From a virus (Duplodnaviria; Heunggongvirae; Uroviricota; Caudoviricetes): a stretch of DNA of 18,208 nucleotides. The translations under genes were made by a program, and so were the position numbers. Below, in pieces: positions 2,395 to 18,208 of this stretch; within the stretch, counting starts at the first letter, position 1; the number at the start of each line of letters is the position of its first letter. Location of the stretch: the IMG/VR virus record IMGVR_UViG_2879754190_000001. One strand, given 5' to 3'. The notes under the pieces were generated by a model, which was given only the letters and a program-made list of their open reading frames with translations, did not search any database and was not told the DNA's origin.

Positions 2395-3062
2395 GTGTGC
2401 CCGGAGTTCAGGGCGGGCATGGATGCTTAAATGAACCGCGAGTCTGTCTGGAATATTGAACCGGTAACTCACGATGAGAAACCCAACAATCCCACCGGGT
2501 GTGACGGTGGAGAACCTGAGCGGCAGTGACCTGCGGCATGCCCGCAGGGTGATGTAACCCGCTGACAACGGGGATTGAGGCGAGATCACTAAGCCGAGAT
2601 GATCCTCAAGGTTAAGTACTGAAAGGCTGAAGAACATGAACCCGTTAATCCGCCTCTGTGGGTTGAAAACGTCACCACGGCCTACGTGATCTGACAGGCC
2701 GTGCAGGAGGAACTGGCAGTGATACGTAAGCACTGCCGGTCGAAGGTGTTTTGACATGTATGCGAAACACCGGGGCAGCAGCGTCTATCACACTTGCGTT
2801 GCTGACTTCTGCCAACTTGCGGCAAGCAAGGATAAAGAGTGCGACGGGCAGCCTCCTCAGTATGCCTGAGTCCGGCAGGTAAACCGGGAAGGTCAGCGAC
2901 GGATGTTAAGGGGCATGGCTCCGATGACGCGCTGGCTGGCGGAGCTTCCGTAGTAGTCCGCGATGGGGAAAGCCCATTACATGGCGAAGGGAAGCAGTTT
3001 GAATGTGTTTGCGACGTGAATTAACTGACCTAACGAGGTGAAGACCTTTGATAATCAGCGAA

Positions 3063-4570
3063 ATGCAACGCAAGCTTGCCACATGGGCAGCCACCGATCC
3101 GTCCCTACGGATTCAACGGCTGCTGCGTCTGATAACACAACCAGAATGGCTGGCTGAAGCGGCGCGGATCACGCTTTCATCAAAGGGGGCCCATACCCCC
3201 GGCGTTGATGGCGTGAACAAAACAATGCTACAGGCCAGACTGGCTGTTGAGCTGCAAATCCTCAGGGATGAATTACTCTCAGGCCACTACCAGCCCTTGC
3301 CCGCCAGACGGGTTTACATCCCTAAAAGCAACGGCAAACTGCGACCACTGGGTATCCCCGCGTTGCGGGATCGTATTGTTCAGCGGGCCATGCTGATGGC
3401 GATGGAGCCGATATGGGAGAGTGATTTTCATACGCTCTCATATGGCTTCCGGCCTGAGCGCAGTGTCCACCACGCGATCCGCACGGTGAAATTACAGCTC
3501 ACAGACTGTGGTGAAACCCGGGGACGCTGGGTGATTGAAGGCGACCTGTCCAGTTACTTCGACACCGTACATCATCGACTGCTGATGAAGGCTGTACGCC
3601 GCAGGATCAGTGACGCACGTTTCATGACTCTGCTGTGGAAAACCATCAAGGCGGGACATATCGATGTCGGTCTCTTTCGGGCGGCCAGTGAAGGTGTGCC
3701 ACAGGGCGGTGTTATATCGCCGCTATTATCGAACATCATGCTGAATGAGTTCGATCAATACCTGCATGAGCGCTACCTGAGCGGGAAAGCCAGAAAAGAT
3801 CGGTGGTACTGGAATAACAGTATCCAACGGGGCCGAAGTACGGCGGTCAGAGAAACTGGCAGTGGAAACCCGCGGTGGCGTACTGCCGCTATGCCGATGA
3901 TTTTGTCCTCATCGTCAAAGGCACCAAAGCACAGGCGGAAGCCATCAGGGAGGAGTGTCGGGGTGTGCTCGAAGGCAGTCTGAAACTCAGGCTGAACATG
4001 GATAAGACTAAAATCACCCATGTTAATGACGGCTTTATCTTTCTGGGGCACAGGATCATTCGCAAACGCAGTCGTTATGGCGAGATGCGAGTGGTCTCAA
4101 CGATCCCGCAGGAGAAAGCCAGAAACTTCGCCGCATCGCTGACAGCACTGTTATCAGGCAACTACAGTGAAAGCAAAGTCGATATGGCTGAACAACTCAA
4201 CCGAAAACTGAAAGGCTGGGCCATGTTCTATCAGTTCGTTGATTTTAAGGCCAAAGTCTTCAGTTATATCGACCGTGTCGTGTTCTGGAAGCTGGCTCAC
4301 TGGCTGGCCCGCAAATACCGTACAGGTATCGCTTCCCTGATGAGGTGGTGGTGTAAATCACCGAAACCGGGTCAGAGCAAAACGTGGGTTTTATTTGGTA
4401 AAACCAATCACGGCAAGCTCAGCGGCGAAATACTGTACCGGTTGGTGGGGCAAGGCAAGAAGCTGTTCCGCTGGCGGCTACCCGAAGGTAATCCCTATCT
4501 GAGGACGGAGACCAGAACACGTATACATCGCGCTTTACAGAAGTGGCAATGGCGTTCGCCAGGCATTTAA
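3063..4570 (+). pseudogene. Group II intron-encoded reverse transcriptase/maturase, split by a frameshift near 3850-3860; no HNH endonuclease motif seen
   Basis: RT motifs GVDGV, RRVYIPKSNGKLRPLGIPALRDRIVQ, SYGFRPERS, GDLSSYFDTV and GVPQGGVISPLLSNIMLNEFD in one frame; YADDFVL, LNMDKTKITHV, GFIFLGHRI and the maturase-like C-terminus in the -1 frame. Confidence 0.8.
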
Positions 4571-4631: not shown

Positions 4632-5138
<507 letters not shown>

Positions 5139-5146
5139 CCACTTCA

Positions 5147-6115
5147 CCTTTCTTTCCGAACCTTGTTGATCACCTTCTGGTTAAGCATCACACGGCTGAT
5201 GGCGTTGAAGATGGCATTTCAATCTGCTACTTCAAGCCATACTCGCAAGGCCGTGCTCGCTGGCAGGGTGACACAATCCACGGCGTGTGGTTTGACGAAG
5301 AGCCACCATACAGCATTTATGGCGAAGGTCTTACCCGTACCAACAAATACGGGCAATTCTCAATTCTGACGTTTACCCCGCTGATGGGGATGTCTGACGT
5401 TGTTACCAAGTTCCTGAAGAACCCCAGCAAGTCGCAGAAAGTGGTCAACATGACCATCTATGACGCTGAGCACTATACCGACGAGCAGAAAGAGCAAATC
5501 ATCGCATCATATCCCGAGCATGAGAGAGAGGCGCGTGCTCGCGGTATTCCTACGATGGGTAGTGGTCGAATCTTCCAGATACCGGAAGAGACGATTAAGT
5601 GTCAGCCGTTCGAGTGTCCTGATCACTTCTACGTAATTGGCGGGATGGATTTCGGATGGGATCACCCACAGGCGCAAGTTCAGCTTTGGTGGGATAAGGA
5701 GGCAGACACAATCTACGTTTCACGCGTGTGGAAGGCGAAAGAAAAAACAGCCGTTCAGGCGTGGGGAGCCGTTAAATCATGGGCGCATAAAGTGCCAACC
5801 GCATGGCCTCATGATGGAAACCAGCACGAGAAGGGCGGCGGTGAGCAGCTCAAAGGGCAGTATGCAGACGCTGGATTTATGATGTTGCAGGAGCATGCGA
5901 CATGGCCTGATGGCGGTAACGCTGTTGAGCCAGGCATCACTGAATTGCGCGACATGATGCTCGATGGTCGCTTCAAAGTATTCAATACCTGTGAGCCATT
6001 CTTTGAGGAGTTCCGCCTCTATCACCGTGATGAAAACGGGAAAATCGTCAAGCTTAACGACGACGTGCTATCCGCCGTTCGCTATGCATACATGATGCGC
6101 CGCTTCGCAAAATGA
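5147..6115 (+). pseudogene. P22-like terminase large subunit (gene 2 equivalent), C-terminal about 322 codons only; the N-terminal ATPase region is missing, replaced by IS911
   Basis: Open frame begins exactly at the IS911 right end; the terminase assignment rests mainly on its position immediately upstream of the portal gene (gene order 2-1-8-5), with VIGGMDFGWDHP consistent with a nuclease-type acidic motif. P22 gp2 is about 499 aa. Confidence 0.75.
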
Positions 6116-6186
6116 TGCGCGACATCAAAAAACCAAAAGAGAAAAAGATACCAGCCCCAATCAGGCCCATCGCACGGAGAACTTAA

Positions 6187-8352
6187 ATGGCCGACGAAAA
6201 CAGACTCAATTCCATTCTGTGTAAGTTTGACGCAGACTGGATGGCGAGCGATGAAGCCAGAACCGAGGCGACAAATGACCTGTATTTTAGCCGAGTGTCG
6301 CAATGGGATGACTGGCTATCAAACTACACTACCCTGCAATATCGCGGACAATTCGATGTTGTTCGCCCGGAGGTCAGGAAACTGGTCGCAGAGATGCGCC
6401 GGAACCCTGTCGACGTTCTCTTCCGACCCAAAGACGGCGCTAATCCTGATGCAGCCGATGTATTGATGGGGATGTATCGTACTGATATGCGCCATAACAC
6501 GGCAAAGATTGCCGTTAACGTTGGCGTTCGTGAGCAGATAGAGTCAGGCGTTGGTGCATGGCGTCTGGTCACGCAGTACGAAGACAACGATCCAACAAGC
6601 AACAATCAGGTAATCCGACGCCTGCCAATCCATGAAGCCTGCTCACACGTCATATGGGACGCCAACAGCAAGCAGATGGATAAGAGCGACGCTAAGCACT
6701 GCACGGTGATTAACGCCTTGTCGCGCAATGGCTGGAAAGAGTTCGCAGAGGATTACGGTATTGACCCGGATACCCTGCCATCTTTCCAGAATCCTAACGA
6801 TACATGGCTATTCCCGTGGGTGTCGAATGATGTCGTCTACGTCGCTGAGTATTACGAGGTAGAAGAGGAGAAGGAGAAGGTCTTCATCTACCGCGACCCG
6901 CTGACAGGTGAGCCGGTCAGCTATTACCAGCAGGATATCAAAGACGTCATCGACGACCTGGCTAATCGTGGATTCATTAAGGTAGCAGAGCGCAAGGTGA
7001 AGCGTCGGCGTGTGTATAAGTCGATCATCACCTGTACGCAGATACTGAAAGACCGCGAGAAGATAGCCGGAGAGCATATTCCAATCGTTCCAGTGTATGG
7101 CGAATGGTCATTCGCTGGTGACAAGGAGTGCTACGAGGGTGTGGTAAGGCTGACGAAAGACGGTCAACGCCTTCGTAACATGATTATGTCGTTCAACGCC
7201 GATATTGTTGCTCGGTCACCGAAGAAGAAACCGACCTTCTTCCCTGAGCAAATCGAAGGCTACGAATACATGTACGGCGGAAATGATGACTATCCGTACT
7301 ATCTGCAGAACAGGACTGATGAAAACGGTAACGACCTGCCGATTGGTCCAATCTCCTACATGGAAAACCCTGAAGTGCCGCAAGCCAACGCTTACATGCT
7401 TGAGGCTGCCACCAACGCAGTGAAAGAAGTGGCTAGTCTTGGCGTGGATGCGCAGGCGGCAAATGGTCAGGTCGCTTTTGATACCGTCAATCAACTGAAC
7501 ATGCGGGCAGACCTTGAGACATACGTGTTTCAGGATAACCTGGCTACCGCAATGCGACGTGATGGCGAGATTTATGCCTCAATGGTCAACGATATTTATG
7601 ACGTTCCTCGTCATGTAACGCTGACACTTGAAGATGGAAGCGAGAAAGACGTTCAACTCTATGCGCAAGTTGTCGATTACCAGTCCGGCAATGTGGTCAC
7701 ACTCAACGACATTCGCGGTCGATATGAGTGCTATACAGACGTTGGGCCATCCTTCCAGAGTATGAAGGAACAGAACCGCGCAGAGATTCAGGAGTTGCTC
7801 ACCAAGGTTCCGCAAGGTACTCCAGAGTTCCAGATGCTGATGCTGCAATACTTCACGCTGCTTGACGGTAAAGGCGTCGAGATGATGCGAGAGTACGCGA
7901 ACAAGCAACTGGTGATGATGGGGCTGAAGAAACCAGAAACACCTGAAGAGATGGAGATGGTGCAGCAGGCACAACAACAGCCGCAGCAGCCATCAGCAGA
8001 GCAAATTCAGGCGCAGGGTATCCTTCTGCAAGGTCAGGCTGAATTGCTCAAGGCAGAGAACCAACAGGCGCAGATTCAGGTTGAAGCTGCCAAGGTTGAA
8101 GCCCAAAACCAACTCAACGCCGCGAAGATTGCAGAAATATTCAACAATATGGACCTCGACAAGCAGGCAGAACTGCGTGAGTACCTCAGGCTCGTAGGTC
8201 AATTCCAGCAACAGCGCAGCAAAGATGCTCGTGCTAACGCTGAGCTGCTTCTTAAAGATGCAGACCAGACTCATTCACAACGCATGGATTTCGCGAATCT
8301 TATGCGTCAAGTTCAAATCCCCTCCGGCGGAGTAGCCGAGACACCTCAATAA
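6187..8352 (+). CDS. Portal protein, P22 gp1 family (721 aa)
   Basis: Near-colinear similarity to the P22 portal as I recall it (MADENRL...[12 protein letters not shown]...[12 protein letters not shown]...[23 protein letters not shown]...[15 protein letters not shown]...NAELLLK...VAETPQ); GGAG RBS 8 nt upstream. Confidence 0.95.
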
Positions 8353-8365
8353 GAGAGAGTTAATC

Positions 8366-9277
8366 ATGGACCAAACCACCGACATTCAGGCTTCTGAAGA
8401 ATTAACCCTGCCCGGCAATCATGCAGCGGCATCTGCTGATGGCTTAGTTGTCGATAATGCCAACGACAGCGCAGGTCAGGAAGAAGGCTTTGAGATTGTC
8501 CGGAAAGACGATGAGAAACCAAAACAAGACCCGGCAACTAATGCTGAATTTGCCCGTCGCCGCATCGAACGCAAACGCCAGCGTGAGCTTGAGCAGCAGA
8601 TGGAAGCGGTTAAGCGTGGAGAGTTGCCGGAGCACCTGCGGGTGAACCCTGAGTTACCAAAACAACCAGACCCTAACGATTATCTTTCCGAAGATGCACT
8701 GGCTAAGTACGACTATGACCAGAGCCGCGCACTGGCTGCCTTCCAGCAGGCAAACAGTGAATGGCAGATCAAGGCTATGGACGCACGAAGCCAGGCTGTC
8801 GCCGAGCAGGGTCGCAAAACTCAGGAGTTCACCCAGCAATCAGCGCAATACGTCGAGGCGGCCCGTAAGCACTACGAGGCAGCGGAAAAGCTCAATATCC
8901 CTGACTATCAGGAGAAAGAGGATGCATTCATGCAACTGGTGCCGCCAGCAGTCGGTGCCGACATCATGCGCCTCTTCCCGGAGAAATCCGCCGCTCTCAT
9001 GTATCACCTTGGTGCTAATCCTGAGAAAACACGCCAGTTGCTGGCGATGGACGGGCAATCCGCGCTGATTGAACTCACTCGACTGTCAGAACGTTTAACT
9101 CTCAAGCCTCGAGCCAAGCCTGTTTCAGAAGCCCCGTTACCTGATGAACCCATTCAGGGACATGCTGTTGCTGCAAATATCTCTGCGATTGAAAAGCAGA
9201 TGGAGGCGGCAGCAAACAAAGGGGATGTAGAGACGTACCGCAAGCTCAAGGCGCAACTGAATAAAGGAATTCGATAA
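8366..9277 (+). CDS. Scaffolding protein, P22 gp8-like (303 aa)
   Basis: Position between portal and coat; same length as P22 gp8 (303 aa); charged, helix-rich composition; stop overlaps the coat start (TAATG). Confidence 0.8.
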
Positions 9278-10572
9278 TGGCATTAAATGAAGGTCAACTG
9301 GTCACGTATGCTCTGGATGAAATCATCGGAACCGTCCAGAACCTGACGCCAATGGCGTCAAAAGTGACAAAATACCCCCCTCCGGCAGAATCCATGCAGC
9401 GTTCAAGCAACACCGTGTGGATGCCTGTTGAGCAGGAAGCGCCAACCCAGACTGGCTGGGATTTAACTGGCAACGCAACCGGGATTCTGGAACTCTCCGT
9501 GAAGTGCAACATGGGCGATCCGGATAACGATTTCTTCGAGCTTCGTGCAGATGACCTGCGTGATGAGCGTTCTTACCGTCGCCGCATCCAGGCATCCGCC
9601 AAAAAACTGGCGAATAACATTGAGTCAGCGATTGCCAAACAGGCAACTGAAATGGGCTCGCTTGTTGTTCACGATACCCGCGCAATTGGTCCATCGACTG
9701 GCCTGCCTGGCTGGGATTTTGTGTCTGATGCAGAGCGACTGATGTTCTCCCGTGAGCTAAACCGCGACATGGGCATCAGTTACTTCCTGAACCCTGACGA
9801 TTACCGCAAAGCAGGCCGCAACCTGGTAGATGGTGACATCTTCGGGCGCGTTCCTGAAGAAGCATATCGAAACGGTACTATTCAGCGTCAGATTGCTGGC
9901 TTTGATGAAATTCTTCGCTCACCGAAACTTCCGGCAGTTACCAAGTCAACCGCGACTGGTGTAACTGTTTCTGGTGCGCAGAAGTTTAAGCCGCAGGCAT
10001 ACACCCTTGATACCGATGGTAACAAAGAGAACGTCGACAACCGTGTTGCAACGGTGACCGTATCCTCCACCACCGGATTTAAGCGCGGCGACAAAATCAG
10101 CTTCATTGGTGTGAAGTTCCTGTCTCAGATGGCGAAGAATGTGCTGACTGATGACGCGACTTTCTCAATCACCCGTGTGATCGATGGTACTCACATCGAA
10201 ATCACGCCGAAGCCGATTGCGCTGGATGACGCGTCACTGACAAAAGAAGAGAAGGCTTACGCTAACGTAAACACCTCTCTTGCTGATACCACTCCGGTAA
10301 ACGTTCTGAACGTGGCAACAACCACCGCTAACGTGTTCTGGGCTGATGACTCAATCCGCCTGCTGTCTCAGCCGATCCCGGTAACCCATGAACTGTTTGC
10401 TGGCATGAAAACGTCTTCCTTCAGCATTCCAGGTATTGGTGTTAACGGCATCTTCGCAACGCAGGGTGATATCAACACTCTGTCTGGTAAGTGCCGTATT
10501 GCTGTGTGGTATTCAGCATGTGCTGTACGACCAGAGGCAATTGGTGTTGGTCTGCCTAACCAGACCGCGTGA
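9277..10572 (+). CDS. Major capsid (coat) protein, P22 gp5-like (431 aa)
   Basis: Position and length (P22 gp5 is 430 aa); translationally coupled to the scaffold gene; followed by a strong intrinsic terminator. Confidence 0.85.
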
Positions 10573-10580
10573 TAACCAGA

Positions 10581-10604
10581 GGGAGCTTCGGCTCCCGTTT
10601 TTAT
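10581..10604 (+). terminator. Rho-independent terminator/attenuator after the coat gene
   Basis: GGGAGC-TTCG-GCTCCC perfect 6-bp GC-rich stem with a UUCG tetraloop, followed by GTTTTTAT; sits 9 nt after the coat stop codon. Confidence 0.6.
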
Positions 10605-10616
10605 CTGGAGACAAGC

Positions 10617-10841
10617 ATGACACACATGATCTTTCGTCATGGCGACATGAAGAAGTGGAAAGGCGTTGGCTACGACTTTGAAATCGTGAAAGCCGAAGAG
10701 CTTCAGGAATATCTGGATGCTGGCTGGTTTTCACATCCTGATGACCTTTTGAAGGATGTTGCAGAGCCAGAAGAAAAACAGCGTAAAAAGCCTGGTCGAA
10801 AACCTAAGGCGGCAGCAGATGAACCTGACAACGAAGGGTGA
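10617..10841 (+). CDS. Small hypothetical protein (74 aa) between coat and gp4
   Basis: ATG with GGAG 7 nt upstream, just after the terminator; [74 protein letters not shown]; overlaps the gp4 start by 23 nt in another frame. Confidence 0.35.
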
Positions 10842-11319
10842 TTTAGTTCTTGCGGCATTACGTAAGCTCGGTGTTGCATCAAATGCCACGTTAACCGATG
10901 TCGAACCGCAGTCTATGGAAGACGGCGTCAACGACCTTGAAATGATGATGGCTGAATGGCTTGGCGGTGATGCGTCACCTGGTATCAACGTTGGCTACAT
11001 TTTTGCTGATGCAGATGTTGCTCCGGATCCGGGCGATGAGCACGGTTTATCAAATAACGCTATCAATGCCGTCATTTTCAACCTTGCCTGCCGAATTGCT
11101 CCAGATTATGCGCTGGAAGCGTCTGCAAAACTTATAACCACTGCCAGATACGGGAAAGAGCGACTCGTCAAACTGTCTGCAATGGACAGGGCAAAAGCAG
11201 CTAAATGTAAGTCCGGTTATCCAAACCGTATGCCTGTTGGTAGTGGTAACCAGTTGGCGAAGTGGAATGGTTGGAATTACTTCCACCGAAAGGAACCTTG
11301 CGATAACGGGAGCGAATAA
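10819..11319 (+). CDS. Head completion / tail accessory protein, P22 gp4-like (166 aa)
   Basis: [33 protein letters not shown]...[14 protein letters not shown]...; length matches P22 gp4 (166 aa) when started at ATG 10819 rather than the upstream ATG at 10756. Confidence 0.75.
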
Positions 11320-12737
11320 TGCCTATTCAGCAACTTCCGCTTATGAAAGGTGTCGGCAAAGACTTCCGAAACGCCGACTATATCGACTATCTGCCAGTGA
11401 ATATGCTGGCTACACCCAAAGAAATCCTGAACAGCAGCGGATATCTTCGCTCATTCCCGGGCATTGCCAAACGTTCTGACGTGAACGGTGTATCTCGCGG
11501 CGTCGAGTACAACATGGCGCAGAATGCTGTTTATCGCGTGTGTGGCGGCAAGCTGTACAAAGGAGAAAGTGAAGTCGGTGATGTTGCCGGAAGTGGTCGT
11601 GTATCAATGGCGCATGGTCGGACATCACAGGCGGTAGGCGTTAATGGTCAACTGGTCGAGTATCGCTATGATGGCACGGTCAAAACCGTCTCAAACTGGC
11701 CTACAGACAGTGGATTCACTCAGTATGAGTTAGGTTCAGTTCGCGACATTACGCGCTTACGTGGGCGTTATGCGTGGTCAAAAGACGGAACTGATTCATG
11801 GTTTATCACTGACCTTGAAGACGAATCTCATCCTGACCGTTACAGCGCACAATATCGTGCCGAGTCTCAGCCTGACGGCATCATCGGTATCGGGACATGG
11901 CGAGACTTCATCGTCTGCTTTGGTTCATCGACTATTGAATATTTCTCCCTGACTGGCGCAACCACCGTTGGTGCCGCTTTGTATGTTGCACAACCATCGC
12001 TGATGGTGCAGAAAGGCATTGCCGGAACTTACTGCAAAACGCCATTCGCTGATTCGTATGCGTTTATCAGCAATCCGGCAACGGGTGCGCCGTCTGTGTA
12101 TATCATCGACTCCGGTCAGGTGTCACCAATTGCCAGCGCGAGCATTGAGAAAATCCTCCGCTCCTACACTGCTGATGAACTGGCTGATGGTGTGATGGAA
12201 TCGCTGCGATTTGATGCTCATGAGTTGCTGATTATCCACCTTCCGCGTCACGTCCTCGTGTACGACGCATCTTCAATCGCCAATGGCCCACAATGGTGTG
12301 TGCTGAAAACAGGTCTGTATGACGATGTGTACCGCGCTATCGACTTCGTTTACGAAGGCAATCAGATAACGTGCGGCGATAAGCTGGAATCTGTTACCGG
12401 GAAACTGCAATTCGATATCAGCAGCCAGTACGACAAGCAACAGGAACACCTGCTGTTTACTCCACTCTTCAAAGCGGATAACGCCAGAGTGTTCGACCTT
12501 GAGGTTGAATCGTCAACTGGCGTTGCGCAGTACGCCGACCGCCTTTTTCTCTCTGCAACCACTGACTGCATCAATTACGGGCGTGAGCAGATGATTGAGC
12601 AGAATGAACCGTTCGTTTACGACAAGCGTGTTTTGTGGAAGCGAGTAGGGCGCATCAGGAAAAATGTCGGCTTCAAATTGCGCGTTATCACGAAGTCACC
12701 TGTCACTCTGTCTGGCGCTCAGATAAGGATTGAGTAA
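11319..12737 (+). CDS. Tail accessory protein, P22 gp10-like (472 aa)
   Basis: Position after gp4; same length as P22 gp10 (472 aa); TAATG start/stop overlaps on both sides. Confidence 0.75.
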
Positions 12738-13534
12738 TGGCTGATTCGAATCTCAATGTGCCGGTAATCATCCAAGCTACGCGGCTCGATACATCAGTCC
12801 TTCCACGCAATATCTTCTCGCAGTCGTATCTGCTTTACGTTATCGCACAGGGCACTGATGTTGGTAACGTGGCTAACAAAGCCAACGAGGCCGGACAGGG
12901 CGCTTATGATGCACAGGTCAGGAACGATGAGCAGGATGTGATTCTCGCTGACCATGAGCAGCGAATTTCTGCTGCGGAAGCAACGCTTGTTAATCATGAG
13001 GAGCGAATCAGACAGGCAGAATCAACTCTTCAGGACCATGAAACACGAATAGCTCAGAATGAAAGCGATATTTCGTCGCTTGACACAAGAGTTCAGTCGC
13101 TGGAGTCGCAGGTTTCAGACCATGAAACGCGCATCGATGCTCTGGAGTATGCAACCACACGCAAGAAGTCAGAGGTTGTTTACTCTGGTGTATCTGTAAC
13201 CATCCCGACAGCGCCGACCAACCTTGTTAGCCTGCTGAAAACGCTCACACCGTCATCCGGCTCGTTGGCACCATTCTTCGACACCGTTAACAACAAGATG
13301 GTTGTGTTCAACGAGAACAAAACCCTGCTCTTCAAGTTGTCGATTGTCGGCACGTGGCCCAGCGGAACCGCCAACAGGTCAATGCAGCTAACCTTTTCCG
13401 GCTCTGTTCCTGACACACTGGTCAGCAGTCGTAATGCGGCGACAACAACCGACAACATCCTGTTAGCTACGTTCTTCAGCGTGGATAAAGACGGCTTTCT
13501 TGCCACAACCATCAAGATAATCGCGGAGCAGTGA
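12737..13534 (+). CDS. Tail needle (P22 gp26 family) with a conserved N-terminal domain, coiled-coil repeats and a divergent C-terminal domain (265 aa)
   Basis: N-terminus [43 protein letters not shown]...[20 protein letters not shown] matches the gp26 N-terminus as I recall it; central DHE.RI heptad-type repeats; the C-terminal 120 aa do not resemble P22 gp26. Confidence 0.8.
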
Positions 13535-13989
13535 TGATTACATTCAAACCAACGCGAAACATCGACCTGATAGAAGCAGTCGGAAATCACCCTGACATTA
13601 TCGCCGGGAGCAACAACGGTGATGGATACGACTACAAACCTGAATGCCGTTACTTTGAGGTGAACGTGCACGGTCAGTTTGGCGGCATTGTTTACTATCA
13701 GGAGATTCAGCCGCTGACATTAGATTGCCACGCCATGTACCTGCCAGAGATTCGCGGCTTCAGCAAGGAAATTGGGCTGGCGTTCTGGCGATACATTCTG
13801 ACTAACACCACCGTTCAGTGCGTAACATCGTTCGCTGCACGCAAATTCCGACACGGTCAGATGTACTGCGCAATGATTGGCCTTAAGCGTGTAGGAACCA
13901 TCAAGAAATACTTCAAAGGCGTGGATGACGTGACTTTTTACAGCGCCACACGCGAAGAACTAATCGACTTCCTGAATCACGGGAGATAG
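13534..13989 (+). CDS. Hypothetical protein in the P22 gp14 position (151 aa), Cys/His-containing
   Basis: ORF coupled to the tail needle stop (TGATG); [25 protein letters not shown]...KPECRYFEVNVHGQFGG...LDCHAMYLPEIRGF...; assignment by position only (P22 gp14 is 176 aa). Confidence 0.5.
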   Translation: MITFKPTRNIDLIEAVGNHPDIIAGSNNGDGYDYKPECRYFEVNVHGQFGGIVYYQEIQPLTLDCHAMYLPEIRGFSKEIGLAFWRYILTNTTVQCVTSFAARKFRHGQMYCAMIGLKRVGTIKKYFKGVDDVTFYSATREELIDFLNHGR

Positions 13990-13991
13990 CC

Positions 13992-14684
13992 ATGTTATAT
14001 GCATTTAAGCTGGGCAGAAAACTGCGCGGCGAGGAACCTTATTGCCCTGAAAAAGGCGGGAAAGGTGGCAGTTCTGATAAAAGCGCAAAGTATGCAGCAG
14101 AAGCCCAGAAGTATGCTGCAGACCTGCAAAATCAGCAGTGGCAGACGATCATGAAAAACCTTGCTCCGTTCACGCCTCTTGCGGAGCAGTATGTTAACCA
14201 GCTTCAGAACCTTTCCAGTTTAGAAGGTCAGGGGCAGGCACTTAATCAGTATTACAACTCTAAGCAGTATAAAGACCTTGCAGGGCAGGCGCGTTACCAG
14301 AGTCTTGCTGCTGCGGAGGCGACGGGTGGACTTGGTTCGACAGCCACAAGCAATCAACTGGCTACGATCGCGCCGACACTCGGTCAGTCTTGGTTATCAA
14401 ATCAGATGAGCAATTACAACAATCTGGCAAACGTTGGGCTTGGTGCGCTGCAAGGTCAGGCAAACGCCGGGCAGACGTACGCCAACAACATGAGCAGCAT
14501 TGCACAGCAAAGCGCAGCTCTTGCCGCTGCTAATGCCAATAAACCATCAAGTCTTCAGACTGCAATTAGCGGTGGCACGTCTGGTGCGATTGCCGGTGCA
14601 GGTCTTGCCAGCCTTTTGGGAACATCAACGCCTTGGGGCGCTGGTATTGGTGCTGGTATCGGATTGCTTGGCTCGTTGTTTTAA
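13992..14684 (+). CDS. Ejection (internal virion) protein, P22 gp7-like (230 aa)
   Basis: Position and length (P22 gp7 is 229 aa); Q/A/N-rich low-complexity body with a glycine-rich hydrophobic C-terminus (GAIAGAGLASLLG...GAGIGAGIGLLGSLF). Confidence 0.6.
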   Translation: MLYAFKLGRKLRGEEPYCPEKGGKGGSSDKSAKYAAEAQKYAADLQNQQWQTIMKNLAPFTPLAEQYVNQLQNLSSLEGQGQALNQYYNSKQYKDLAGQARYQSLAAAEATGGLGSTATSNQLATIAPTLGQSWLSNQMSNYNNLANVGLGALQGQANAGQTYANNMSSIAQQSAALAAANANKPSSLQTAISGGTSGAIAGAGLASLLGTSTPWGAGIGAGIGLLGSLF

Positions 14685-14693
14685 GGGGGAATC

Positions 14694-16025
14694 ATGGCTA
14701 CTTGGCAAGGAACAAACGGCGGATTGTTGGCTGGTATCGGCGGCGTCAACTCAAACGCTCCGAGCGTAAATGACATCGGCAATACGCTTCAGCTTATCAG
14801 GCAGAACAATGATATTGAGCGTTCAGGCGCTAACAATGTTGGGCTGACTGCTTTGCAAGGTCTTTCAGGTATTGCGGGTGTTTTTCAGCAGGAAAAGCAG
14901 GCTCAGCGGCAGAAAGAATTTCAGCAGGCGTACGCTAATGCTTATGCGTCTGGTGATCGCGGTGCTTTGCGTCAGTTGGCTACTCAATATCCAGACCAGA
15001 TTGAATCCGTTCGTAAAGGCATGGGATTCATTGATGAAGAGCAGCGTAATTCTATCGGCACCTTAGCGGCTGGCGCACGCCTTGCGTCATCGTCTCCAGA
15101 AGCAATGCAATCATGGCTGCAAAACAACGCCGGTGAGTTAGCTCGTGTTGGCGTTAATCCTCATGACGTCGCTCAGATGTACCAACAGAACCCGCGGCAG
15201 TTCGGCGAATTTGTCGATCACCTGGGGATGAACAGTCTCGGGCCCGAAAAATACTTTGACCTACAGGATAAAATGCAGGGTCGCCAGGTTACCATGCGCG
15301 GTCAGGATCTGGATTCGCAAACCGCCGCTCGGAATCAGGCAATCACAATGCGCGGACAAGATATCCAGGCGAATTTAGGTCAGCAGCGCATTAATCTGGA
15401 CGCAGAAACAAACCGCATTAACAACGAAAATAAGCGCCTTGACCGGATGCTATCAGCAGAAACTAACGACCTGAAGCGCCAGGAAATACAGAGCCGCATA
15501 GCAGCCAACAACCAGCAGTTGCAGCAGAAGCAGCAAGCGCTAAATGATGGCTACAAAGACGGCATCAACACCCTCACAACCAGCATGTTCACTCTGAACG
15601 ATATCGTTAGTTCTCCTTCACTTAAGAGCATTACAGGCTTACGTGGAGTAATCCCCAACGTTCCAGGCTCACAGGCTGCAGACACTCAGGCACGACTTGA
15701 TACCTTTAAATCACAAGCATACCTGACAGCGGTTCAGGCCATGCGAGGCATGGGCGCACTTTCTGATGCCGAGGGCAAAAAGCTCGACCAGGCTGTTGGT
15801 TCGCTGCAGAACTCGCAGAGCGAGGAGTCCTTTCGTCGCAACGCTGGCGTCATCCTGAACACGCTCAACCAGAAGCGTAATGAGGCGGTTGGTAAGTACG
15901 TTCAGCAAAACGGTATCAAGCGAGTGGAAGCGCCTCAGGCTTCTATAGATTACCTGAAGCAGCACCCCGAGCTGTCAATCGACTTCATTAATCGCTACGG
16001 ATATCTTCCATCTTTGGGGCAGTAA
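14694..16025 (+). CDS. Ejection protein, P22 gp20-like (443 aa)
   Basis: Position in the conserved 7-20-16 order; Q/N-rich; GGGGG RBS upstream. Confidence 0.6.
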   Translation: MATWQGTNGGLLAGIGGVNSNAPSVNDIGNTLQLIRQNNDIERSGANNVGLTALQGLSGIAGVFQQEKQAQRQKEFQQAYANAYASGDRGALRQLATQYPDQIESVRKGMGFIDEEQRNSIGTLAAGARLASSSPEAMQSWLQNNAGELARVGVNPHDVAQMYQQNPRQFGEFVDHLGMNSLGPEKYFDLQDKMQGRQVTMRGQDLDSQTAARNQAITMRGQDIQANLGQQRINLDAETNRINNENKRLDRMLSAETNDLKRQEIQSRIAANNQQLQQKQQALNDGYKDGINTLTTSMFTLNDIVSSPSLKSITGLRGVIPNVPGSQAADTQARLDTFKSQAYLTAVQAMRGMGALSDAEGKKLDQAVGSLQNSQSEESFRRNAGVILNTLNQKRNEAVGKYVQQNGIKRVEAPQASIDYLKQHPELSIDFINRYGYLPSLGQ

Positions 16026-17756
16026 ATGGCTAATTACCGTGATTTGTTAGAGCAGGCTGGCGCACGTTACGGTGTGCCAGAAGGGTTGATGACTGCACTG
16101 GGTGCCAAGGAGTCTTCTTACAACCCTGCCGCAGTAAGCTCCGCCGGGGCTGTAGGATTGACTCAGGTCATGCCTGGGACATGGCGTGATATGGGTTATA
16201 CCGATGAGCAAATGCAAAACCCCGAATATCAGGCTGACGCTGGCGCGCGCTATCTGGCAAAGATGTACCAGCAGTTTGGTAACTGGCGTGACTCTCTTCA
16301 GGCTTATCACGACGGTCCCGGCAACGTTATGAAGGCAAAGCGTGGTGAATATACGCCAGGACCTGAAGGCCGCGGTTACGTTGATGATCGCTTTGCTCAA
16401 TGGGCTGGTGACCCGGTGACAGACTCAACAGTCGAACAGCGCGCCACCTCTGCAAAGGTACATCCTCAGCAAGACCCTAACAACCCGTTTGCACAACTGG
16501 AAGTACAGTCATCCGAACAAGTATCGGCATCAGGTGTGCAGTCAGACCCAAATAATCCATTTGCTCAGATTGAGCAGCAGGCAGCCAGTCAGCAGCCACC
16601 TCAACCCGTAAGTTCTGTCGCACCGAAACCTGTTCAGCAACAAACAGTTAATCAGGCCAATAATGCACCAACACGGGAAGAACCATCATTGATGCAACAA
16701 GCTGGCGATTGGCTCACTGGTGGTCAAAGTGCAGGGCAAATTGCAGAACAGGCTGGTCGTGGTCTGGTAAACATACCATTTGACGTATTGCAGGGTGGCG
16801 CAAGTCTGATTAATGCAATCAGTCAGGGGCTTGGGGGGCCAAAAGTATTGGATGATGTTTATCGTCCAGTAGACAGACCGACAGACCCCTACGCGCAAGC
16901 TGGAGAGTCAATAGGCGGTTATCTTGTTCCTGGAGCAGGTGTAGCTGGAAACATGGTCATTGGTTCTCTCGCTGACGCGGCGAATCAACGGGGTGATTTT
17001 GCCGAAAATGCCGCTATTAATGCCGGACTTAGCATTGCTACGCATGGCCTGATAAATGGCGTTACCCGTGGTGTTCGTGGTGCATCAAATATAATTAGTG
17101 GCAATAAAACATCTGCACAGAGAGCGACCACTGCGCCAACAGAAACATCACCATTCTCCGGTGATGCCGCTGCAGCAACAAATCCTGCGGTTCATGCCGC
17201 AGAGGCAAGAGTAGCACAAGGTGTACCAATGACGCCTGCGACGAAGAACCCAGAGGAAGTCGTTCGCACAGTAGCAGCACAAAAAAGGCCAAATCTCGCT
17301 TCATCGCTTGATGAACTAGATATCAATCCTCAGGCTGAAGTTCTGGAGTCTGCTGAAAGGCTTAATGTTGATTCATTACTCCCTTCACACTTTTCCGGGA
17401 ACGAGCAATACAAGGCAGTTGAGCAAGCAATCAAGTCCCGTGCGGGTTCTGCTCTACAGGTGCAGGAAAATGAAGCAATCAGGCAGCTAGCACAGGGCGC
17501 GGGTGAGATAATTGATCGCGTTTCCGGTGCAAAAGATGCTCTTGGTATGAGCGACAAGTTTATTGATACGGTCAATGGAAGAATGTCTGCGCTGATGAAA
17601 CGAAGCGACCAGCTTTATCGCAATGTTGAAAAGGCGATGCCTGCAGGTGCAAAAATTGATGCGCCATCAACAAGGTCAATGCTCAAACAGGTGGCAGAAG
17701 ATCTTGGCGGGATGAAAAACCTTGACCCTATTGAAAAGAGAGTTGAGGTAGCCTGA
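16026..17756 (+). CDS. Ejection protein, P22 gp16-position, carrying an N-terminal lytic transglycosylase (SLT) domain (576 aa)
   Basis: N-terminal ...[34 protein letters not shown]...[14 protein letters not shown]...AYHDGPGNV has the family-1 lytic transglycosylase motif pattern (ES / GLMQ-type / AYN-like); followed by a long A/Q/G-rich region. Confidence 0.7.
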
Positions 17757-17807
17757 GTTTAACGGACACTCCTTCCTGAAATAGAATGGCATCAGAAGGA
17801 GCTAATA

Positions 17808-17827
17808 ATGAGCAGAAAAACCCAACG
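17808..17827 (+). pseudogene. First 6-7 codons (MSRKTQR) of a gene truncated by the IS629 insertion
   Basis: AAGGAG RBS at 17796-17801, ATG at 17808, reading frame runs straight into the IS629 left end at 17828. Confidence 0.3.
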
Positions 17828-18208
17828 TGAACCGCCCCGGGAATCCTGGAGACTAAACTTCCTGAGAAAGAGGTAAACAGGATGACTAAAAATACTCGTT
17901 TTTCCCCCGAAGTCCGTCAACGGGCAGTCCGTATGGTTCTGGAAAGTCAGGGCGAATATGACTCACAATGGGCGACAATTTGTTCCATTGCCCCAAAGAT
18001 TGGCTGTACGCCGGAGACTCTGCGTGTCTGGGGTCGCCAGCATGAGCGGGATACCGGGGGCGGTGATGGAGGGCTCACCACCGCTGAACGTCAGCGTCTG
18101 AAAGAGCTGGAGCGTGAAAATCGTGAACTGCGCCGCAGTAACGATATCCTTCGCCAGGCTTCCGCTTATTTTGCGAAGGCGGAGTTCGACCGCCTCTGGA
18201 AAAAATGA
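17828..18208 (+). mobile_element. IS629 (IS3 family), left end plus complete orfA; the rest of the element lies beyond the window
   Basis: Left terminus TGAACCGCCCCGGGAATCCTGGAGACTAAACTTCCTGAGAAAGAGGTAAACAGG followed by an orfA matching IS629 OrfA from memory. Confidence 0.9.
17882..18208 (+). CDS. IS629 OrfA (transposase N-terminal DNA-binding protein, 108 aa)
   Basis: [108 protein letters not shown]; helix-turn-helix plus leucine-zipper-like C-terminus. Confidence 0.9.

Follow-up and report, generated by a model that had tools for sequence, protein, structure and literature searches.

The DNA analysed here, 18,208 nucleotides of the IMG/VR virus record IMGVR_UViG_2879754190_000001 (the whole stretch is called the window below), carries close to its right end an open reading frame (ORF) of 576 codons at 16026-17756. 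The ORF lies directly downstream of homologs of the P22 proteins gp7 (PF25688 P22_gp7, E=3e-134) and gp20 (PF16928, E=1e-67) and thus occupies the gene-16 slot of the P22-like virion module, the position that is held by gp16 in P22, HK620 and CUS-3 and by gp13 in Sf6. An earlier reading of the DNA, made from the sequence alone, had called the product an ejection-type protein, and this holds. Moreover, the protein matches phrog_21143 of the PHROGs over its full length (E=0) and phrog_770, annotated as 'DNA transfer protein' (E=2e-107), and PF26808 Phage_P22_gp16 is listed for the exact 576-residue sequence. In alignments, residues 219-330, the core, are near-identical to gp16 of P22, HK620 and CUS-3; the corresponding part of the Sf6 protein is homologous but diverged. 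Taken together with the SLT profile match and the predicted fold described below, the synteny, the PHROG matches and the near-identity of the core therefore identify the ORF, as judged from its sequence, as a gene-16-type ejection protein to which an SLT domain has been added at the N-terminus. The protein belongs by descent both to the P22 gp16 family and to the family-1 lytic transglycosylases, but it is incomplete here. We consider it quite probable that the ORF as a whole represents the 5' two thirds of a P22-like gene-16 ejection protein which combines an SLT domain with docking motifs and which is dead in this genome. The parts of the gene and its upstream neighbour are the following:

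16026-17756, plus strand: gp16-homolog ORF, ATG start, 576 amino acids (aa)
16026-17743, plus strand: gene-16 homolog, the part that stems from the phage (codons 1-572 out of 911)
16026-16406, plus strand: N-terminal family-1 lytic transglycosylase (SLT) domain, aa 1-127 (Pfam, AlphaFold2, Foldseek)
16110-16112, plus strand: codon of Glu29, predicted catalytic acid/base in the ES motif (Slt70 alignment; invariant in 67 of 67 domains)
16407-16679, plus strand: Q/P-rich linker, aa 128-218, predicted to be disordered (predicted local distance difference test score, pLDDT, 34-55 in both AlphaFold2 models; composition), containing both repeats
16467-16502, plus strand: repeat copy 1, aa 148-159, at the same place as the NxF[DA]Q motif that follows the SLT domain in the IME_EC2, IME279 and Kc166B homologs
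16539-16574, plus strand: repeat copy 2, aa 172-183 (from the sequence)
16680-17015, plus strand: conserved gp16 core, aa 219-330 (alignments with P22, HK620 and CUS-3)
17016-17743, plus strand: variable gp16 body, ending after codon 572 (comparison with Sf101 and relatives)
14694-16025, plus strand: gp20 homolog, periplasmic-tube ejection protein, 443 aa (PF16928 Inj_translocase, E=1e-67; synteny with Sf101, IME10 and P22)

The N-terminal lytic transglycosylase domain

The sequence-only reading had proposed SLT-family motifs in the first 110 residues or so, and the profile search that it suggested gave a significant match of the Pfam family SLT (PF01464) to aa 7-110 (E=9.3e-25; 86.9 bits against a cut-off of 21.3). 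All three motifs of the family-1 lytic transglycosylases, ES, GLxQ and AYxxG, are present in the protein: KESSYNP covers aa 28-34 (nucleotides (nt) 16107-16127), the second motif region, of the GLxQ type, aa 44-53, and AYHDGPGNV aa 93-101. Of the proteins with a solved structure, E. coli Slt70 is the closest in sequence, and in the alignment of the two, Glu29-Ser30 of the phage domain correspond to Glu478-Ser479 of Slt70. Glu478 is the catalytic residue of Slt70. Glu29 and Ser30 as well as A42, G44, Q47, Y76, Y94 and G97 are invariant in an alignment of 67 sequences, drawn from the closest SLT domains in the database. The earlier reading would fall with the lack of a significant SLT match or with a glutamate in KESSYNP that is not conserved; since the match is significant and Glu29 is conserved in all 67 domains and aligned with Glu478 of Slt70, it stands in both respects.

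The structure prediction, likewise suggested there, yielded a lytic-transglycosylase fold. The AlphaFold2 model is confident over aa 1-127 (pLDDT >90 for aa 1-120 and >85 up to about aa 130), and aa 130-215 are without structure. In a Foldseek search against the PDB, Slt, Slt70, MltC, MltE and MltF were found at a probability of 1.00 with E-values of about 1e-5 (including 5ohu, 1qte and 4c5f), and chain B of the T7 ejectosome entry, gp16 (7k5c_B), ranked 31st (E=3e-4). Thus, as far as profile, catalytic motifs and the predicted goose-type lysozyme-like α-helical fold can tell, the domain is a family-1 lytic transglycosylase. It shares the three motifs and the lysozyme-like fold with Slt70, Slt, MltC, MltE and MltF, but it differs from these enzymes in that it has no superhelical or other accessory domains and no signal peptide or lipobox, as read from the N-terminus of the ORF protein. 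The SLT domain would reach the periplasm by phage ejection rather than by Sec export as the cellular enzymes do.

The likeness to T7 is one of architecture. In T7 (PDB 7K5C), too, the last and largest of the ejection proteins, gp16, begins with a lytic transglycosylase domain, behind which lies an extended segment that serves as a 'molecular tape' and binds gp15. However, there is no detectable homology beyond the transglycosylase domain, and within this domain the identity is only about 20%: phrog_342 covers aa 3-238 of the ORF protein (E=8.5e-24), and PHROG and tblastn matches to T7-like gp16 proteins stop at about aa 120-240. Moreover, P22-like virions lack a core stack, unlike T7. The ORF protein is therefore comparable to T7 gp16 in the way it works but is not a member of the T7 gp16 family.

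Mosaic distribution of the fusion

The gp16 homologs of P22, HK620, CUS-3 and Sf6 contain no SLT domain and no Pfam match at all, in agreement with the earlier remark that P22 is not known to have such a domain in this gene; the comparison with Sf6, HK620 and CUS-3 that had been recommended gave the same answer. Instead, these proteins begin with N-terminal regions of about 50-85 aa that carry other aromatic motifs. An N-terminal SLT domain is present on the gp16 homologs of Sf101, IME10, IME_EC2 (Murrayvirus) and IME279 (Sortsnevirus), and the fusion is carried by viable phages, i.e. Sf101, IME10, APC_JM3.2, Huey, Dewey, IME_EC2 and IME279. The closest relatives of the window protein, Sf101 gp13 and its counterparts in IME10, APC_JM3.2, Huey, Dewey and E. 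coli prophages, have the same SLT module, both repeats and the same upstream gp20. The intact Sf101 gp13 consists of four parts: the SLT domain (aa 1-127), a disordered linker of about 90 residues with two copies of DPNNPFAQ[L/I]E, the core, and a variable helical body.

The first 206 residues, the N-module, are at least 98% identical across Sf101, APC_JM3.2, IME10, Huey, Dewey and phiKp_30. In Sf101 and in the window this module is joined to a core of the P22/HK620 type, whereas the IME10-type proteins combine the same N-module with a different core and body of the Sf6 type. The N-terminus of the HK620 type is likewise found with both core types. Since it is joined to two different bodies, the N-module is thus, by its sequence, an independently exchanging mosaic unit. 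Among 5426 complete E. coli genomes, 70 contain the N-module, always in a protein annotated for its lytic transglycosylase domain (the RefSeq label of the E. coli prophage relatives is 'lytic transglycosylase domain-containing protein'), and 610 complete E. coli genomes contain the P22/HK620-type core.

The wider family was covered by a whole-library HMMER search with the body (aa 205-572), which returned 428 cluster representatives at 50% identity. Among the best 150 of these 428, an SLT domain was present in 25, and it always started within the first 50 residues. The best 80 loci that matched the core alignment had N-termini almost exclusively of the P22 type, and the matches to aa 1-215 in a homolog search were for the most part generic SLT proteins and fragments rather than full-length relatives. 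In Kosakonia phage Kc166B (L061:3908-7058), the SLT domain is a separate ORF of 310 aa that is followed by a gp16-like body of 734 aa; either the fusion is naturally split in this phage or the sequence contains a frameshift error.

The SLT-gp16 fusion is therefore not unusual: it is common in the wider gp16 family and already part of public annotation, both for Sf101 and for E. coli genomes in RefSeq. It is not discussed in the Sf101 paper. According to a review of ejection proteins from 2022, the gp16 transglycosylase is absent from P22-like phages. This statement does not hold, as an N-terminal SLT domain is found in an appreciable minority of the gp16-family proteins. Sf101, IME10, Huey and Dewey, isolated phages of E. 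coli and Shigella, provide a genetically tractable system to find out what a virion-borne transglycosylase adds in comparison to close relatives that lack it.

SLT is one of several muralytic cargo domains that are placed before or between two copies of a short motif, described in the next section, in gp16-like proteins. It is the cargo in the window protein, where it precedes both copies, and in its SLT-gp16 relatives. On one IMG/VR contig (L317) a SleB-type Hydrolase_2 domain (PF07486, E=1e-16) lies between the motif copies, and on another (L325) a Glucosaminidase domain (PF01832, E=4e-21) precedes both copies as SLT does in the window protein. The presence of Hydrolase_2 and Glucosaminidase in the same slot therefore makes the N-terminus of gp16-like proteins look like a swap site for muralytic cargo. 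A further segment of about 90 aa, which we call 'domain X' (GNID[IL]xNRPxVxNxDGSISTVRS..GxEVLIPTVSDDGRI[ML]SDDEA..), was seen between or after the motif copies, in the place of SLT, in L146 (P0142), L296, L335, L275, L343, L035 and P0122; it had no Pfam match and no sequence match in the PDB.

A tandem motif and the C-terminal tail of gp20

The linker behind the SLT domain is rich in proline and glutamine, as the earlier reading had it (aa 111-215 contain 18 Q, 14 P, 12 A, 11 V and 10 S), and contains DPNNPFAQ twice, at aa 150-157 (nt 16473-16496) and aa 174-181 (nt 16545-16568). The two copies are exactly 24 codons apart; this spacing had been recognized before, but with nucleotide coordinates that were one base too low. 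An exact repeat of eight residues did not occur in any of 5000 shuffles of the protein, the longest repeat being seven residues, in three shuffles. The two units of 24 aa are identical at 12 of 24 residues. In the eight-residue core, the DNA copies differ at six positions, all of them synonymous, and none is non-synonymous. The sequence of the repeat thus identifies it as an old duplication that has been kept by selection on the peptide. Recent slippage of the DNA was rejected as its origin: the two copies differ at 11 of 36 nt. Both copies fall into the part of the linker that AlphaFold2 predicts to be disordered, and the model of the 576-aa protein, computed from a 30-sequence alignment, is of low confidence except for the SLT domain and a portion of the body.

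In 21 distinct modules of the Lederbergvirus type, the motif columns are invariant or nearly so and the 12-residue spacer is variable; both length and sequence of the linker differ among lineages. More distant SLT-gp16 proteins share the motif class N-x-F-[D/A]-[Q/E]-Φ, typically with one copy at the extreme N-terminus and one after the SLT domain:

IME_EC2: MANIFDQFDQ and GGNVFDQFGD
IME279: NFFDQFD, twice
Kc166B: NMFAQY and NLFAEY
P0246: MANPFAQFD, GNPFAQFD and DPNNPFVQFD

With a strict version of the motif, ten occurrences were counted, in 5 of 123 full-length representatives and never beyond residue 210, as compared to 0.18 expected from shuffles. The repeat had been regarded as an internal feature of this one protein; by sequence it is rather the local form of a widespread tandem motif and not a local oddity. 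A second short conserved element, VEQRATSAK (window 16431-16457, aa 136-144), lies between the SLT domain and repeat 1; its counterparts are PTQYATSARS in IME_EC2 and PIQRATSARR in IME279, and AlphaFold2 models it as a short helix of low confidence.

The motif co-occurs with a particular end of the upstream protein. In the window this is

15939-16022, plus strand: gp20 C-terminal tail, ASIDYLKQHPELSIDFINRYGYLPSLGQ, of the tail class ..YL+xNPxLxxxFxAKYG[YLP / xGA..LG], found together with the NxF[AD]Q motif in the following gene

A scan of IMG/VR with the degenerate sequence ATG GCN AAY NNN TTY GMN CAR TTY identified at least 120 loci. Among the matches listed, 101 mark the start of ORFs of 150 to >2300 aa, of which 78 contained a second motif copy, mostly 9-30 residues downstream of the first; and 77 of the 89 upstream ORFs, counted if they ended -8 to +10 nt from the motif ORF, had a conserved tail according to a strict regular expression (about 85 by eye). 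The consensus of this tail is ..P-A-A-I-x-x-L-K/R-x-N-P-x-L-x-x-x-F-D-A-K-Y-G, followed by YLP(EG) or xGAxxxLG, and the end of the window gp20 is of the same type. The reciprocal scan for QFDAKYG within 25 residues of a stop codon gave 73 distinct cases. The next ORF starts with MAN-x-F-[DEA]-[QE]-Φ in 27 of them, and in 38 more the motif lies among its first 45 residues (65 of 73); six of the remaining eight have variants with K or R (NPFDKFD, NPFDRFD).

The type of tail tracks the type of motif and not the presence of the SLT domain, as the following combinations illustrate:

P22-type gp16 N-terminal region: gp20 tail ..GSYTSKSGIQFTVE (69 loci)
HK620/Sf6-type gp16 N-terminal region: gp20 tail ..SNFSSLWGD
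gp16 with SLT and DPNNPFAQ: gp20 tail ..INRYGYLP (47 loci)
P0142, no SLT, NFFDQFDE twice: gp20 tail ..FQAKYGYLP
P0246, SLT, NPFAQFD three times: gp20 tail ..FFDHYGFMPE
P0127, SLT, GPWEKYQ and DGPWSNY motifs: unrelated gp20 tail

Thus, motif type and tail type shift together over four classes, and the gp16 body and the cargo domain assort independently. For individual phages, gp20 ends in ..GIKFTVE in P22 and in ..SSLWGD in HK620, CUS-3 and Sf6. In all, the end of gp20 and the start of gp16 were seen as a conserved pair in hundreds of highly diverse viral contigs (loci L150-L372). A fusion of gp20 and gp16 by readthrough or frameshifting was rejected, as the spacing and the frame between stop and start vary among the loci. 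A comparison of the window gp20 (14694-16025) with 39 related loci revealed that its N-terminal third is mosaic in the SLT-type phages (44-75% identity in some) and that its C-terminal two thirds stay with the N-module of gp16; this pattern fits a pairing of the N-terminal part of gp20 with gp7 and of the C-terminal part with the N-terminus of gp16. The pair of motif and tail appears to be undescribed and is the only part of this analysis with real novelty: the motif strings gave nothing relevant in the literature searched, the sampled environmental motif proteins are not covered by any Pfam family, and neither motif nor tail has a Pfam family. A tblastn search with one environmental MANPFDQFD protein found no match among cultured phages.

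Based on these observations, we tentatively propose that the tandem motif N-x-F-[D/A]-Q-Φ and the tail of gp20, about 30 residues, bind each other and so connect the channel protein of the inner membrane with the plinth of the periplasmic tube, and that the motif pair also serves as a landing pad for cargo domains. An intact SLT-gp16 would be packaged in the virion and be ejected into the periplasm after gp7, like other gp16 proteins. There, the SLT domain on its flexible tether of about 90 residues would cut glycan strands locally, and this opening of the murein would let the periplasmic tube of gp20 and the inner-membrane channel of gp16 pass. By analogy with the transglycosylase domain of T7 gp16, which is needed only when the peptidoglycan is highly cross-linked (PMC8954989), this contribution is probably auxiliary rather than essential. 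T7 mutants in this domain are delayed at 20 °C and on stationary-phase cells. The two motif copies probably dock the N-terminal region of gp16 on the C-terminal tail or plinth of gp20, and two motifs on each of six gp16 molecules would serve twelve gp20 molecules. For P22, it has been reported that gp16, once in the periplasm, diffuses and builds the inner-membrane channel on the 'club foot' of gp20, that gp16 co-purifies with gp20, that AlphaFold3 runs which include gp16 1-205 alter the predicted placement of the C-terminal segment of gp20, and that the channel is modelled with 12 gp20 and 6 gp16 (bioRxiv 10.64898/2026.09.03.749273). The co-purification, the AlphaFold3 shift and the 12:6 model are compatible with the docking that we propose. 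With the motif-tail pair there is a concrete candidate, open to testing, for how the protein of the periplasmic tube and that of the inner-membrane channel touch each other, a step that the 2026 in situ study of the P22 channel structure left open (bioRxiv 10.64898/2026.09.03.749273).

Several points weigh against this proposal. The main caveat is that the co-occurrence of motif and tail is confounded by the adjacency of their DNA: the two would travel together in mosaic exchange anyway. Indeed, the C-terminal two thirds of gp20 and aa 1-206 of gp16 form a co-inherited block in Lederbergvirus. Moreover, Kc166B has the motif (NMFAQY, NLFAEY) together with a different gp20 tail that is not of the YGYLP type, and the single-chain AlphaFold2 models contain no ordered contact for the motif. 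As to the enzyme, the literature searched contained no enzymatic, virion-proteome or genetic data for an SLT-gp16 of any P22-like phage. P22-like phages without SLT infect well, and gp4 of P22 has been reported to be muralytic (PMC5380687); therefore, the SLT domain is dispensable in principle.

It is possible, though in our view rather unlikely, that DPNNPFAQ is a genuine short linear motif with a partner other than the tail of gp20, be it the portal, scaffold or coat protein, for which it would act as an incorporation signal, the surface of the inner membrane, or a host periplasmic protein. The position of the motif, normally at the extreme N-terminus and in two copies, would suit a signal for packaging or threading, and there is a superficial similarity to acidic-aromatic boxes such as the TolB box of colicins (DGSGW..ENNPW). 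Plain linkage could explain the co-occurrence with the gp20 tail, and Kc166B keeps the motif next to another tail. However, the concerted change of tail and motif types across the four classes, with body and cargo assorting independently, the high degree of pairing in both directions and the biochemically known association of gp16 with gp20 in P22 argue for gp20 as the partner. Even less probable is that the repeats have no specific partner at all and belong to a flexible spacer of low complexity that gives the SLT domain its reach. Such a spacer would agree with the Q/P-rich composition and predicted disorder of the repeat region and with a linker that varies in length and sequence among lineages, but it would account neither for an eight-residue core that is (nearly) invariant while the spacer 12 aa away varies nor for six synonymous against zero non-synonymous differences between the copies. 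Moreover, this motif class recurs in very distant proteins, usually twice and 50-fold over shuffles, and co-occurs with a specific tail on the neighbouring protein.

The truncated copy and the prophage remnant

What the sequence-only reading missed is that the ORF is a remnant that was truncated by an insertion sequence (IS); in its natural form the gene does not end with the stop codon at 17754-17756. Its nearest phage counterpart is Sf101 gp13 (YP_009153087.1), a gene of 911 codons. Over nt 1-1718 of the ORF, the two genes are 98.5% identical: 26 nt and 7 aa differ, the reading frame is undisturbed, and the homology breaks off abruptly at nt 17743. The third base of codon 572, the codons E-V-A and the stop codon come from IS sequence; in the codon count of the gene-16 homolog, codon 573 begins with nt 17742-17743. 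Codons 573-911 of Sf101 gp13 have no counterpart in the window, where the ORF runs out in IS sequence; thus 572 of 911 codons of the gp16-type gene remain and the C-terminal third is lost. No coding sequence for the C-terminus of gp16 was detected within 10 kb downstream in six S. flexneri genomes. The elements that bound the fragment and the fragment itself are:

17744-17826, plus strand: left end of an IS3-family element, 83 bp (Sf101 homology stops at 17743; matches to IS3-family elements in thousands of E. coli records)
17827-18208, plus strand: left end of another IS3-family element, which lies inside the first and has its orfA at 17882-18208 (PF01527 HTH_Tnp_1, E=9e-12)
5144-17743, plus strand: P22-like (Lederbergvirus-type) prophage remnant (megablast matches to APC_JM3.2, Dewey and IME10 start at 5144 and end at 17743 or earlier)

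From 17744 onwards, the sequence matches 30,105 sites, annotated as IS3 family transposase, in 4,429 E. coli genomes. We take the element at 17744 to be IS600-like and that at 17827 to be IS629/IS1203-like. By Pfam, the remnant contains in this order TerL without its N-terminus, portal, scaffold, coat, gp4, gp10, gp26, gp14, gp7, gp20 and the truncated gp16, and on the left the P22-like homology begins at 5144 inside the large-terminase gene (5144-6115). The IS junction, the missing 3' coding sequence and the left break in the terminase therefore identify the gp16-type gene as a pseudogene in an IS-bounded prophage fragment (5144-17743). An IS3-family element inserted after codon 572, and the tailspike, the last third of the gene and whatever else made up the prophage have been lost. 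The truncated gp16 copy of this genome cannot work as a virion protein. The earlier reading, a virion-borne wall-cutting enzyme for genome delivery, is thus supported in part: it was right on the domain and on the role suggested for it, but it overlooked the truncation, owing to which this copy cannot fulfil the role, and the existing annotation of the fusion.

The window matches Shigella flexneri chromosomes exactly. Its tail is identical to CP001383.1, presumably S. flexneri 2002017, at 2183 of 2183 positions, and the exact 576-aa product was recorded in 1949 index blocks, among them complete chromosomes such as CP001383.1. In these S. flexneri genomes, psiF-phoA-iraP-ddlA follow directly after the second IS. 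The same gp16/IS junction is absent from the complete E. coli genomes. The remnant is fixed in S. flexneri chromosomes. One might read the presence of the same protein, free of frameshifts, in 1949 index blocks and many complete S. flexneri chromosomes as a sign that the 576-codon ORF is a domesticated Shigella gene for a cytoplasmic or secreted lytic transglycosylase kept by selection. We regard this as very improbable, as clonal descent explains the identity among the genomes, the N-terminus has neither signal peptide nor lipobox, the ORF ends in IS-derived codons, and IS elements flank the remnant, from which the late regulatory region of the phage is missing. That the protein is a 'lytic tail fiber protein', i.e. 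an external tail component that digests the wall from outside, is a notion found only in database labels (PHROG 21143 and the RefSeq entry of Sf101), and we give it hardly any credence, since the protein is homologous, in part identical, to gp16 of P22 and HK620, sits in the gene-16 position with the Sf101 tailspike encoded by a separate downstream gene, and contains no fibre or β-helix domain. With the ORF read as the remnant of a gene-16 ejection protein, the locus itself matters little: it is a decayed S. flexneri prophage gene whose close intact copies are already annotated as transglycosylase-domain proteins.

The left part of the window contains further mobile elements. A fragment of an IS3-family transposase (rve) at 4722-5143, with a terminal inverted repeat that ends at 5143 and that we assume to be IS911-like, abuts the truncated terminase gene. 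An IS3-family element that looks complete, presumably IS2-like, occupies 1-1270, with orfA at 1-477 (HTH_Tnp_1) and orfB at 434-1270 (rve). Between them, at 3048-4570, lies a reverse transcriptase/maturase of the group II intron type (RVT_1 and GIIM) in two overlapping ORFs (3048-3983 and 3875-4570), which is probably frameshifted.

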